Positions 1,537 to 5,373 of a DNA stretch of 39,433 nt are shown piece by piece. The notes under the pieces are model-generated. The model ran no database searches, was not told where the DNA came from, and saw nothing but the letters and a program-made list of their open reading frames with translations. The stretch lies in the IMG/VR virus record IMGVR_UViG_3300033463_000048, positions 1 to 39,433 of that record. One strand, 5' to 3'. Position numbers and translations under genes: made by a program. Within the stretch, counting starts at the first letter, position 1. Each line of letters begins with the position of its first letter. This stretch comes from a virus. Lineage: Duplodnaviria; Heunggongvirae; Uroviricota; Caudoviricetes.

Positions 1537-2485
1537 GCGTAAGGTTTTATTTAGAGATTGCCCTATATGCGGCAACACTTTAAGTTTAAGCGAGTTCGCG
1601 CCTACCACTTCTATTTTCTATCCTGATGGAGTAATTCCTATTTGCGGCCACTGCATTGATAATTGGCTTAAAGAACAAGATTGGAATTGGGATGCAATTG
1701 ATAAGTTGTGTCAAATGGCTGATATCCCTTTCATTCCTAAAGAGTGGGAAAACTTAAAGGAAATGAGTGAAGATAATCTGTTTGCGCGCTACGCCATGAT
1801 TTGTCAGAAAAGCGAATATTATGGAGTGGGGTGGAAAAAGTATTATGATGAATACCAAGAGTTAAAGAAAAACGGGGATCTTGGCTCTGTTCTTCCTTTA
1901 ATTGGGGATGCTGAACGCCAAGAACTTCAACTTAAATGGGGTAGTAATTATGATGATGAGCAATTAACTTATCTTGAAAACTTATATAAAGGTATCTTAA
2001 CTTCTCAATCTGTTAATGGCGCCCTCCAAGATGACCGCGCACTTAAGATTTGTAAAATCTCGCTTGAAATTGATGAGAGAATTCGTGCGGGCGAAGATTT
2101 TGATAAGCTTCTTGCTTCTCATGACAAACTCGTTAAACAAGCAGACTTTACTCCAACTAATATTAAAAACCTTAATGATTTTGATTCTATAGGTGAACTT
2201 GTTAAGTGGATGGAGAAAAAGGGTTGGCAGGCTCGTTATCATGATGGAGTTACGCGCGATATTGTAGATGAGACAGTTCAAAACATTCAGTCCTTTAATC
2301 AGAGACTTTATACTAATGAAAGTGGTATTAGTGAACAGATTGAAGCGCGCATTGCTTCGTTAAAGAATGTAAAGGATTTGGAAGATAATTTTGGTTCAGA
2401 GAATGAATTTAAACTCGAAGATTATGATAATGAAGGTTATAAAAAATTGATGGAAGAGGAATTTGAGGAGGACGTAGATGAATAA
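1514..2485 (+). CDS. Zn-finger protein directly upstream of TerL; putative terminase small subunit
   Basis: CPIC...CGHC motif at the N-terminus, helical C-terminus, overlaps the TerL start. The function is inferred from position. Confidence 0.5.
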   Translation: MGLQPKIKRKVLFRDCPICGNTLSLSEFAPTTSIFYPDGVIPICGHCIDNWLKEQDWNWDAIDKLCQMADIPFIPKEWENLKEMSEDNLFARYAMICQKSEYYGVGWKKYYDEYQELKKNGDLGSVLPLIGDAERQELQLKWGSNYDDEQLTYLENLYKGILTSQSVNGALQDDRALKICKISLEIDERIRAGEDFDKLLASHDKLVKQADFTPTNIKNLNDFDSIGELVKWMEKKGWQARYHDGVTRDIVDETVQNIQSFNQRLYTNESGISEQIEARIASLKNVKDLEDNFGSENEFKLEDYDNEGYKKLMEEEFEEDVDE

Positions 2486-3050
2486 CTTTATTACTGGAAT
2501 TACTGGTATTAAAGAAGGCGTCATACTTGAGAAAGGGGTTAAACTTAATGAAGAATATTTAGAAGAGAATTTTGATCATATTGGAGATTTATTAAATTAT
2601 TTTATAGATTATCCTGACCTTTTCATTGATATGATTACGCCTGAAGATACGGGATTTCATTTATATTTTTATCAACGTATTTTCTTGCGCGCTATCATGC
2701 GCTTTAGAACAGTTTACATAACCGCGCCTCGTGCTTGGTCTAAATCGTTCTTAACTATTTTAGGTTTATTTTTGCAATGTATCTTTATTCCTGGAAGAAA
2801 GGTTTTCATTTGTACTCCTGGTAAATCTCAGGGTGCGAAGATCGCTAAGGAAAAACTTTTTGAAATTTTTAGACTCTTTCCTTTACTTAGAAAAGAACTA
2901 ATTGGCGGGGAATATGATGAGACTCCTGGTAATTATGGTAAGGACTACGTAGAGCTTCGCTTCCGTAATGGGTCTCAGTTTGATGTAGTTGCGCCTCTCG
3001 ATTCTACCCGTGGTGGACGTCGTAACGGTGGTCTTATTGACGAAGTGCGT
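2478..3050 (+). CDS. terL: Terminase large subunit, exon 1 (ATPase N-terminal part, 191 codons)
   Basis: Q-motif LYFYQRIFL, Walker A-like APRAWSKS, Walker B GLIDEVR ending at U3050; joins in frame to DHEEEMLNTVV at 4180 (spliced product 588 aa). Confidence 0.92.
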
Positions 3051-3084
3051 AAATTTTGTATTATTTTTGTTGAGATGCGAGATT

Positions 3085-3123
3085 CTATTTCTGCTTTATA
3101 TTAGAAATATAAAGGAGGAATAG
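3085..3123 (+). promoter_or_regulatory. Hairpin sequestering the homing endonuclease RBS
   Basis: CTATTTCT(G)CTTTATAT 3085-3101 pairs with ATATAAAG(G)AGGAATAG 3107-3123, burying AGGAGG 3113-3118; analogous to the T4 I-TevI translational-control hairpin. Confidence 0.75.
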
Positions 3124-3127
3124 CAAT

Positions 3128-3970
3128 ATGAAATGCTATATCTACAAAATCGTTAATAAGATTACTAATCAAGTTTATGTTGGGCAAACAACTAACTTGC
3201 AACGCCGATTAGAAAATCATTTGAGCGCTTTACGAAACAATAACCATGTTAATCCAAAATTACAATCTAGTTGGAATAAATATGGGGAAGAAAATTTTGA
3301 AATCACTTCTCAAATATATGATTTAACTAAAGACGAGTTAAATAAAAAAGAAATTGAAGAGATTCAAAAAGAAAACAGTTATGAAAATGGTTTTAATCTA
3401 ACGCTCGGCGGCGACGGTGGAAACACAAGAGGAAATTTAAGCTTTGAAGATTTTTGTTTTATATATTTTGGTATTCAAGAATATGAAGGCTTAACAAATC
3501 GTGTTGCTGATTATCTCGGAATTGATAGTAGTACCGTTTCAGCAATAAAAAGAAAGGCTGCCTATACTTGGTATATTCCAATGGCAGAGGCACTTTCAGA
3601 TGAAGATAAAATTAAATATTTTGAGTTATTTGAAAAAGAATTGGATTTAGCAAATAATCCTCCAAGAATTAAAAAAGCAAATATGTCTGAAAAAGATGTA
3701 ATTGATTTTTTATGTGTTGTTTCTGCATATGGTAGAGGCGCGGAAGCAGCAATGACTCGCTATCTAGATATTTCAAAAGGTTTAAAAGACCATATAGTAA
3801 AAGGCGAGTATAGAAATTACGCTGAAAAGTTTTTATCATTAACAGATTCAGAGATATTTGAAAGAGCAGTACCGATTTTTGAAGATAATAATCTTCAACA
3901 GTATTGCAAACAAAGAATAAAAAAGAATAATGACGTAATACGACCTAACTTCTCATGGATTGCGCACTAA
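3128..3970 (+). CDS. Intron-encoded GIY-YIG homing endonuclease (280 aa)
   Basis: N-terminal YIYKIVNKITNQVYVGQT...R...H, LQSSWNKYGEENF, GFNLTLGG; own RBS; located inside the intron. Confidence 0.92.
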   Translation: MKCYIYKIVNKITNQVYVGQTTNLQRRLENHLSALRNNNHVNPKLQSSWNKYGEENFEITSQIYDLTKDELNKKEIEEIQKENSYENGFNLTLGGDGGNTRGNLSFEDFCFIYFGIQEYEGLTNRVADYLGIDSSTVSAIKRKAAYTWYIPMAEALSDEDKIKYFELFEKELDLANNPPRIKKANMSEKDVIDFLCVVSAYGRGAEAAMTRYLDISKGLKDHIVKGEYRNYAEKFLSLTDSEIFERAVPIFEDNNLQQYCKQRIKKNNDVIRPNFSWIAH

Positions 3971-4179
3971 AAACTCTCTTAATTGCTGGAAACTCCTTCG
4001 GGACAATCAGCAGCCAAGACTTTTAAAAAGTAAGGTTCAACGACTAGTCGAAAGACGTAGGCTCAAGTGAGTCGAAATGGAGAGCACGGTTTGCCCCGTG
4101 AAGATATAGTCTCAACTTTATAGTAATATAAAGCAGTCGAAAGACGGGTATAGATTAACGACCTATACTGAAGAAAATG

Positions 4180-5373
4180 GACCATGAAGAAGAAATGTTA
4201 AATACAGTTGTTATTCCTTTGCTTAACGTAGATCGTCGTCTTCCAACTGGAGAAATAAACGAAAAAGAGCCTAATCGTCAACGTATATATGCAACATCTG
4301 CGGGCGCAAAATCATCGTTCGCATATGATGTATTAATGGATGTTTTTCAAAAGTCTATTATAAATCCAGATGATTACTTCTGTATGGGTTGTGATTATAG
4401 GGTTCCTATGTTACATGGACTTTTACAGAAGAGTTTTATTTACGACTTAAAAACTGATTCTTCTTTTAACCCTAACTCTTTTGCAACCGAATATTTATCA
4501 CTTTGGAGTGGTGGTTCATCAGATGCATGGTTAGATTATGATAGAATTAATAAATATAGAATTTTAAAAAATCCTGAGTGGAAAGTAAAAAATGTAACCA
4601 ACGAAAAAAAATTCCACTTAATTTCAGTAGACGTGGGTGCGATTCATGACCAAACTGTTTGCACTATTTTTAAGGTTAATATTGGTGAGCAAGGAACTTT
4701 TACTTGTTCAGTTACTAATATAATAGTTTTAGGTAAAACCGCAGAAGAAAAAGCCTTTTATCGTCAAGCCATAGATTTAAAACGTTTAATTCAAATTTAT
4801 CAACCGCGTGAGGTTGTAATTGATACAAACGGTATTGGTGTTGGTTTTGGAGAAGTAATGACACAAAGTCAATATGATAGTAAGACAGGAGAATATTATC
4901 CTGCTTATGGCTTCTTTAATGATGATAATTTTAAGAAAATTCAACCACATGATTGTGCAAGAATTTTATATAGTTTTAAAGCTAATTCTACTTTAAAGCC
5001 TAAAATTCAAAGTAATGCTTATACTTTTATTAGTAGCGGACGTGTTCATTTCTTAATTTCTGAACAGAAGGCGCGCTCACTATTACTTGAAACTAAAACT
5101 GGTGCGCACATGAAACCCGAAAATCGCGCAAAACGCTTATTACCGCATGAAATGACTTCTCGTTTAATTGATGAAATGATGAATTTTAAAAGAAAGAAGA
5201 CTGCGGCAGTTAGTGATTTTGTATTGGAACCTATTAACTCCAAATATCCTGATGATAAATTCTATTCTTTCTGTTATGGGCTTTGGCGCATTAAAGAAAT
5301 TGAAGAAGAATATGTTAAGAAATTTAAGAGAAAATTAGAGGGCGCGACACGTCAACTTATATTCTTTAATTAG
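4180..5373 (+). CDS. terL: Terminase large subunit, exon 2 (rest of ATPase plus RNase H-like nuclease, 397 aa)
   Basis: Motif III YATSAG; nuclease acidic residues in ISVDVG, VVIDTNG and PDDKFYS; directly upstream of the portal. The track's ATG at 4177 is the last three intron nucleotides. Confidence 0.92.
   Translation, partial: DHEEEMLNTVVIPLLNVDRRLPTGEINEKEPNRQRIYATSAGAKSSFAYDVLMDVFQKSIINPDDYFCMGCDYRVPMLHGLLQKSFIYDLKTDSSFNPNSFATEYLSLWSGGSSDAWLDYDRINKYRILKNPEWKVKNVTNEKKFHLISVDVGAIHDQTVCTIFKVNIGEQGTFTCSVTNIIVLGKTAEEKAFYRQAIDLKRLIQIYQPREVVIDTNGIGVGFGEVMTQSQYDSKTGEYYPAYGFFNDDNFKKIQPHDCARILYSFKANSTLKPKIQSNAYTFISSGRVHFLISEQKARSLLLETKTGAHMKPENRAKRLLPHEMTSRLIDEMMNFKRKKTAAVSDFVLEPINSKYPDDKFYSFCYGLWRIKEIEEEYVKKFKRKLEGATRQLIFFN

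Follow-up and report, generated by a model that had tools for sequence, protein, structure and literature searches.

A group I intron in the terL gene of an uncultured virus, with a GIY-YIG endonuclease gene in the P1 loop whose last codons overlap the internal guide sequence

When the last codons of a homing endonuclease gene are also the guide sequence of the intron that carries it, is the intron thereby turned into a regulator of its host gene, or has the gene simply run into the ribozyme? The question is raised by a locus of IMG/VR virus record IMGVR_UViG_3300033463_000048, in which a GIY-YIG homing endonuclease gene lies between two parts of the gene encoding the large terminase (terL). 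The window, i.e., the whole stretch of DNA that was analysed (39,433 nucleotides), is part of a 103-kb uncultured virus record; the DNA runs containing it are gut metagenomes, the best one being bovine. We consider it very likely that the locus is a mobile, self-splicing group I intron in terL with the endonuclease gene in the loop of helix P1 (L1), that the overlap of codons and guide arose by the process known as core creep, and that translation of the endonuclease is kept low. No new mechanism is revealed by this intron, which is an uncharacterised member of an already described arrangement. The coordinates of its parts are collected in Table 1.

Table 1. Position of the terL exons, the intron and its elements in the window
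Feature	Position	Strand	Description and basis
terL exon 1	2478..3050	+	191 codons, ending ...GGLIDEVR; open reading frame (ORF) list and tblastn to intron-less L004 and L005
P1 5' strand	3044..3052	+	Exon bases 3044-3050 (splice-site U3050) and first two intron bases
Group I intron, 1,129 nt	3051..4179	+	Rfam RF00028; boundaries from intron-less alleles
Predicted hairpin over endonuclease Shine-Dalgarno (AAGGAGG, 3112-3118)	3082..3127	+	RNAfold
GIY-YIG homing endonuclease gene	3128..3970	+	280 codons plus TAA, in the P1 loop; PF01541, 1MK0/1LN0
P10-forming guide part	3953..3961	+	Pairs with 4180-4187; also codons S-W-I; proximal pairs recovered by RNAalifold
P1-forming guide part	3962..3968	+	Wobble of G3962 with U3050; doubles as codons A-H and first base of TAA
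Ribozyme core	3969..4179	+	P3 (3974-3979), P4, P5, P6, P7, P7.1, P7.2, P8, P9, P9.1, P9.2; Rfam alignment and RNAalifold
terL exon 2	4180..5373	+	397 codons plus stop; ORF list, tblastn, intron-less alleles
P10 3' exon strand	4180..4187	+	Pairs with 3953-3961

Splice junction and guide sequence

The ORFs at 2478-3104 and 4177-5373 each encode one half of a YonF-type (SPbeta) large terminase; tblastn matches annotated as terminase or YonF were found in Geobacillus, Bacillus, Enterococcus, and Lactococcus phages. Two related viral contigs, L004 and L005, carry terL without the intron, and in tblastn alignments residue 191 of exon 1 is followed in both by residue 1 of exon 2, colinear and without a gap (RHGGL[IV]DEVR|DHEE...; DNA ...GTTCGT|GACCA[TC]GAAGA...). 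Because these intron-less homologues read ...DEVR|DHEE... gap-free, the junction is fixed at 3050|4180, the position given by a previous interpretation of the same DNA (hereafter the sequence-only reading), which this comparison supports. Excision of 3051-4179 yields the in-frame product RNGGLIDEVR|DHEEEML, matching the reading of L004 and L005, and the spliced RNA is expected to read ...GAAGTGCGT|GACCATGAA... at this point. At the same terL site the insert is present in 23 loci and missing from L001-L005 and L114-L117, a presence/absence polymorphism that is a signature of homing. A megablast search of phage records returned no near relative of the window DNA; the matches were short and fell in the conserved ribozyme core of introns from other phages. 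Annotation of terL in this phage group gives two ORFs separated by an unrelated gene; the actual product, joined at 3050|4180, has 588 residues.

The search with group I models that had been proposed as a check identified a single group I intron in the window (cmscan, RF00028, 3927-4133, 87.5 bits, E 3.5e-21), well above the gathering threshold of 50 bits, and RF00028 exceeded this threshold also in seven orthologous introns at this terL site (82.5-99.7 bits). In the ribozyme regions of L092 and L093 (~3830-4057), cmscan gave no RF00028 match even at E 0.1. Despite the absent match, these two ribozymes align column for column with that of the window; we therefore treat the absence as a filter miss, and a negative Rfam result on introns of this kind is untrustworthy.

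Five nucleotides separate the guide sequence from the downstream P3 of the Rfam-scored ribozyme. Its downstream part, GCGCACT (3962-3968), pairs at 7/7 positions with the exon end AGTGCGT (3044-3050), with U3050·G3962 at the splice site, and this P1 is lengthened to 9 bp by A3051-U3961 and A3052-U3960. Its upstream part, TCATGG (3953-3958), pairs at 6/6 positions with CCATGA (4182-4187) of the 3' exon, forming a P10 that is lengthened to 8 bp by G4180·U3961 and A4181-U3960, with A3959 bulged. Taken alone, the P1 match is weak, as a 7/7 match (G·U allowed) within a fixed span of 35 nt was also obtained in 77 of 2000 shuffles (~4%). CCATGA has one 6/6 partner only within the intron, and this partner adjoins the P1 strand. 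The P1 match becomes decisive because of this unique adjoining P10 partner, the position directly before P3, the restored terL reading and the covariation with the exons in orthologues.

Covariation was assessed in the 23 loci with an endonuclease homologue at the same terL site for which DNA was fetched; in nearly all of them the neighbouring genes are those of the window, YonG_N upstream and YonD_N downstream. Seven variants of the 5' exon end occur among the orthologues and each is tracked by the guide sequence (exon/guide pairs include AGUGCGU/GCGCACU, GGUGCGU/GCGCACC, AAUCCGU/GCGGAUU, AGCGCGU/GCGCGCU, GUUCCGU/GCGGAAC, and GGUCCGU/GCGGACU), with double compensatory changes at 4/7 positions of P1; among ten distinct exon/guide combinations, eight pair at 7/7 and two at 6/7 positions. 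P10 follows the 3' exon in the same manner, as seen in the exon/guide pairs of the window (CCAUGA/UCAUGG), L093 (CCAUAAUG/UAUUAUGG), L108 (AUCACG/CGUGAU), L110 (AUCACU/AGUGAU), and L179 (GAUUAGGAC/GUCCU-A-AAUU). The P10 duplex energy averaged -6.9 kcal/mol with a guide's own exon and -4.1 kcal/mol with the exons of other lineages (Mann-Whitney p 2.5e-5, indicative only since the sequences are related). Both helices of the sequence-only reading, including the splice-site wobble, are thus borne out by exact pairing and by covariation of the guide with both exons in the 23 loci.

These data also bear on a different view of the locus, in which the two terL ORFs are separate half genes or have other boundaries, P1 is a local hairpin (3931-3939 with 3959-3967) and the endonuclease gene is free-standing outside the intron. 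Such a view would agree with the cmscan output, which placed the P1 of the model on exactly this hairpin with the match starting at 3927, and with the gene callers, which give exon 2 as an ORF from ATG 4177. However, the hairpin contains a non-standard pair, and in the 90%-identical L087, TGACGTAAT is replaced by CAATATAAT. Because the hairpin is not conserved there, we rejected the P1 of the Rfam model as an artefact of a model expecting a short P1 hairpin. Moreover, the true exon/guide pairing covaries in six combinations, the intron-less homologues are colinear across 3050|4180, and the split would fall inside the ATPase domain, directly after the LIDE at the end of exon 1, which we take to be the Walker B motif of the terminase. 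Separate half genes are hence scarcely credible.

The endonuclease stop codon and the guide

The gene inserted between the exons encodes a protein with a match to PF01541 (E 8e-8, 32.9 bits against a cut-off of 22.6), residues 1-92 of which align to the catalytic domain structures 1MK0/1LN0 of I-TevI (E 4e-8). Residues Y6, Y17, R27, H31, H40, E75, and N90 are invariant in 27 homologues, and presumably are the catalytic positions of I-TevI. At least 179 homologues, mostly from gut metagenomes, were present in a large protein collection; the DNA-binding part (residues ~100-280) had no match in Pfam. In 23/23 loci the gene is found between the 5' splice site and the guide sequence, i.e., in L1, a loop of 911 nt in the window and of 862-924 nt across the loci. 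In the window, the gene ends TCA TGG ATT GCG CAC TAA, so that the last five codons and the stop span the whole guide (3953-3968), and the coordinates confirm the earlier observation that these codons double as guide sequence. The accompanying statement that an L1 of ~910 nt holds the whole gene needs a correction, however: the gene does lie in the 911-nt loop, but its last two codons (GCG CAC) and the T of TAA are located in the 3' strand of P1.

The stop codon, whose offset is counted from the wobble G to its own first base, differs widely in position among the orthologues. It lies at -12 nt in L098, -9 nt in L110, -8 nt in L092, -6 nt in L108/L111 and L179/L180, and -5 nt in L100 and L101/L104, and beyond the wobble G at +6 nt in the window, L087, L088, and L103, +7 nt in L106 and L109, +8 nt in L091, L095, L097, and L099, +12 nt in L105, and +18 nt in L093. 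The guide nucleotides are consequently read in all three frames, or not at all: as att GCG CAC (tail -IAH, in the window WIAH), as gat tGC GCA Cnn (-DCAL or -DCAP) or as tgG CGG AAC (-WRN, KWRN). In a maximum-likelihood tree of the endonuclease, genes with and without the overlap are intermingled in at least three clades. Among 120 cluster representatives, ~42 would read the P1 strand, ~67 (~56%) would stop before it and 11 were unclassified, a tally extrapolated from C-terminal motifs and not from DNA. The consensus of the endonuclease family ends ~12 residues short of the C-terminus, and the last ~12 residues have no consensus.

L102 appears to read TAG as sense; counting TAG as a stop gives an offset of +12, and reading through it gives +51. 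The same recoding ('with_TAG=Q') appears in the related phages L088, L106, L109, and L179-L182. In L179, a TAG is present among the first codons of terL exon 2 (GAT TAG GAC), inside the exon strand of P10, where it pairs with a stretch that contains the endonuclease's own TAA stop.

As judged from the compared sequences, the guide-encoded peptide is not conserved whereas the RNA pairing is, and the visible constraint on the guide nucleotides is that of the RNA alone and not of the codons. The sequence-only reading had proposed that codon and splicing constraints are fused in the same 16 nt, which is contradicted by the varying frame, the stop drifting from -12 to +18 nt and the tail without consensus. 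Selection on these 16 nt would instead act via the RNA, through P1 and P10 pairing, and the encoded peptide would be a dispensable tail. The overlap is then best seen as a probable passive outcome of tight packing and stop-codon drift. This is what the core creep model describes (Edgell, Chalamcharla and Belfort 2011, PMC3073962): once a stop codon is lost, after the invasion, the ORF runs on to the following in-frame stop, and extension lengths are predicted to vary. Among the 23 orthologues the extension length does vary by lineage, as seen from the offsets, the three frames and the interspersion in the tree. Core creep is a model and not an intron family, and what the terL introns add to it is a dense natural series with three reading frames; no description of such a dense three-frame natural series was found in the literature. 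The family thus offers an unusually clean natural series for core creep, in which the guide can be non-coding or coding in any frame while it tracks changes in the exons.

Many group I intron ORFs extend into structural elements (PMC3073962; repeated in PMC3984707). The sequence-only reading correctly stated that the T4 intron endonucleases reside in peripheral loops, and implied that a gene in L1 overlapping P1 lacked precedent. ORFs inserted in P1 are already listed in Table 1 of PMC3073962: in the tRNA-fMet intron of Synechocystis PCC 6803, the ORF of I-Ssp6803I lies in P1 with a 61-nt overlap with P1/P2, and in the Physarum large-subunit (LSU) rDNA intron the ORF of I-PpoI lies in P1 with no overlap. 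Together, these two cases span the same range of overlap as the terL-intron orthologues. They differ in their endonuclease families (PD-(D/E)XK and His-Cys box) and intron subgroups, and also in their hosts, as tRNA and rRNA genes entail no translation of the upstream exon, unlike terL.

Translation of the endonuclease and splicing of terL

The arrangement suggests the following sequence of events. The intron would have inserted into an SPbeta/YonF-type terL directly after the codons ...LIDEVR. Because the endonuclease gene occupies the P1 loop, the 5' splice site would have to pair over a long range, with a guide 911 nt downstream, and the core would follow directly after the guide. We infer that the intron splices itself and that the endonuclease allows it to home into empty terL alleles; likewise, occlusion of the guide by ribosomes and a role of the leader hairpin in limiting them are probable parts of the same scheme. 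With a ribosome translating the 3' end of the gene or terminating at 3968-3970, the guide sequence would be occluded on that transcript, as for I-TevI, and a terminating ribosome would hide P3 as well. Ribosomes at the stops located 5-12 nt upstream would presumably leave the guide covered as well, and because of this the codon overlap in itself would add nothing to the interference. That translation of the endonuclease interferes with splicing is plausible by analogy with td, where premature translation of I-TevI is reported to impair splicing through ribosome occupancy (Gibb and Edgell 2010, as cited in PMC3073962 and PMC3984707).

Upstream of the endonuclease gene, RNAfold predicted a hairpin that buries the Shine-Dalgarno sequence (3082-3127, -16.6 kcal/mol, z -4.7); none of 200 shuffles was as stable, and a comparable Shine-Dalgarno hairpin was predicted in 5/6 orthologues tested. 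The frame of exon 1 stays open for 17 codons of the intron, up to TAG 3102-3104 in the loop of this hairpin; a stop in the loop is seen in the window, L087, and L093, and the frame ends earlier in L091, L092, L095, and L098. The element most likely avoids the interference by low translation of the endonuclease, the predicted hairpin sequestering the ribosome-binding site, and the buried Shine-Dalgarno points to selection for low translation rather than to use as a switch. Such restraint of the intron ORF would fit the pattern known for I-TevI. Speculatively, the excised intron, which would keep the whole ORF and an unpaired guide, may act as mRNA after splicing.

The opposite view is that the overlap is an adaptive switch, as the sequence-only reading had proposed: ribosomes finishing the endonuclease would melt P1 and P10, making endonuclease translation and terL splicing mutually exclusive, and packaging would be timed or throttled by the intron. 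The td precedent speaks for it, and so does the position of the stop, which in all standard-stop orthologues, including those with a second ribozyme scaffold (see below), is at most 12 nt before or 18 nt after the wobble G, since a terminating ribosome would, judging from its footprint size, cover the guide nucleotides in all of them; in addition, an exon-1 stop in the hairpin loop could couple endonuclease translation to unspliced RNA. On the other hand, the overlap is conserved neither in position nor in frame, in most family members the gene appears to end ahead of the P1 strand, the sequestered ribosome-binding site suggests that translation is minimised and not exploited, and the in-loop exon-1 stop of the window, L087, and L093 is not shared by L091, L092, L095, and L098. 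Genome compaction in phages, with an ORF filling L1, is a simpler account of the proximity. We found no support for control of DNA packaging by the intron and regard the switch as unlikely. A more specific form of it seems similarly doubtful: the juxtaposition of stop and guide on two ribozyme scaffolds would be a selected device by which each pre-mRNA commits either to endonuclease synthesis or to terL maturation, with the ratio set by the hairpin as it is opened by ribosomes passing from exon 1 into the intron. If that were true, the intron would tune the supply of terminase during infection.

Some observations weigh against a self-splicing intron with passive overlap and restrained translation, which we nevertheless prefer. 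Splicing is deduced from the comparison of alleles. The orthologues are related, so that the statistical tests are not phylogenetically independent. The stop stays near the wobble G in every standard-stop orthologue, which could mean selection for proximity. Finally, RNAalifold on a MAFFT alignment returned no consensus pairs for the 5' leader, the hairpin being a single-sequence prediction.

Among the closest known counterparts is the T4 td intron with I-TevI. Both introns interrupt a protein-coding phage gene and have IA-type ribozymes with P7.1 and P7.2, both endonucleases share the same catalytic domain (1MK0/1LN0 over residues 1-92), and in both the 3' end of the ORF feeds splicing helices, as the last 20 nt of the I-TevI ORF form part of P6a and P7 (PMC3073962). 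In contrast, the ORF for I-TevI occupies the P6 loop of the td intron, whereas that of the terL intron is in the P1 loop and overlaps the guide, i.e., the P10 and P1 strands, and not P6a/P7. Furthermore, a ribosome-binding site covered by a hairpin is a documented feature of I-TevI and only predicted in the terL intron, and the host genes, td and terL, are different. As the guide is the part of a ribozyme that is easiest to manipulate, the terL intron would make a convenient system for interference between translation of an intron ORF and splicing in bacteria.

Ribozyme cores and other terL introns

For the core of the intron, 14 orthologues were aligned over the region that begins with the guide sequence and ends at the 3' exon; the RNAalifold consensus has 55 pairs, of which 36 show compensatory changes. 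The P7 strands (4040-4046 with 4107-4112) were read by eye; they are complementary and invariant, and hence uninformative for covariation. P7.1 and P7.2 correspond to two hairpins that show compensatory changes and lie after the P7 5' strand and before the P3 3' strand. Because five A residues alone separate P1 from P3, there is no room for P2. The architecture is thus of IA type, with P7.1 and P7.2 present and P2 absent. The last intron base, G4179, is the omega-G.

Three introns belonging to one endonuclease lineage, L098 (4060-4080), L101 (3565-3585), and L104 (3566-3586), end in ...AAATA, with A in place of the omega-G; all other orthologues have G. In these three, the P7 strands holding the G-binding site are unchanged. 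Either the A itself serves in its place, or there is a one-base shift of both splice sites, which would turn the conserved Asp after ...DE[VI]R into Asn.

The same endonuclease family is found in L1 at the same terL site in L102, L105, L106, and L108-L111, here with a differently built group I ribozyme. This second scaffold has a large P5 extension and lacks P7.1 and P7.2, and it scores 28.8 bits to RF00028 in L105. In the endonuclease tree, L103, with a core of the window type, groups with L102 and L105, which have the other core, and this comparison of sequences suggests that ribozyme cores were exchanged behind a constant module of endonuclease and guide. The intron of L108 and L111 measures 1,812 nt; downstream of its P7 5' strand a further ORF is inserted that has an AGGAGG and an ATG of its own, so that one intron carries two protein genes.

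Introns in terL are also common in the Bastillevirinae (Bacillus phages, e.g., SIOphi), where several are often present in one gene and many nuclease ORFs overlap conserved intron elements, and terL splicing was shown experimentally for SIOphi (PMC11878797). The host gene class is the same as here, but the terminase family and the insertion site are others, and the nucleases are mostly of the HNH/VSR type (PMC11878797). A literature search for a terL intron with a GIY-YIG gene in L1 returned general reviews and the Bastillevirinae survey, and not this family. The bnrdE intron of SPbeta was considered as a published example of an ORF in L1 and was rejected, as it has no ORF there.

Additional introns were seen within this phage group. 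L001-L003 have no insert at the DEVR|DH site but carry a different group I intron (~2670-3905, ~1.2 kb) located ~25 codons upstream, after ...GKDYVKL; its core begins directly after the splice site, leaving it without an ORF in L1. Some terL genes of the group contain three to five group I introns (L088-L090, 1-4854; L097, 888-2699), with four Rfam matches in L088 and three in L097, and the exons left between them are as short as ~36 codons.

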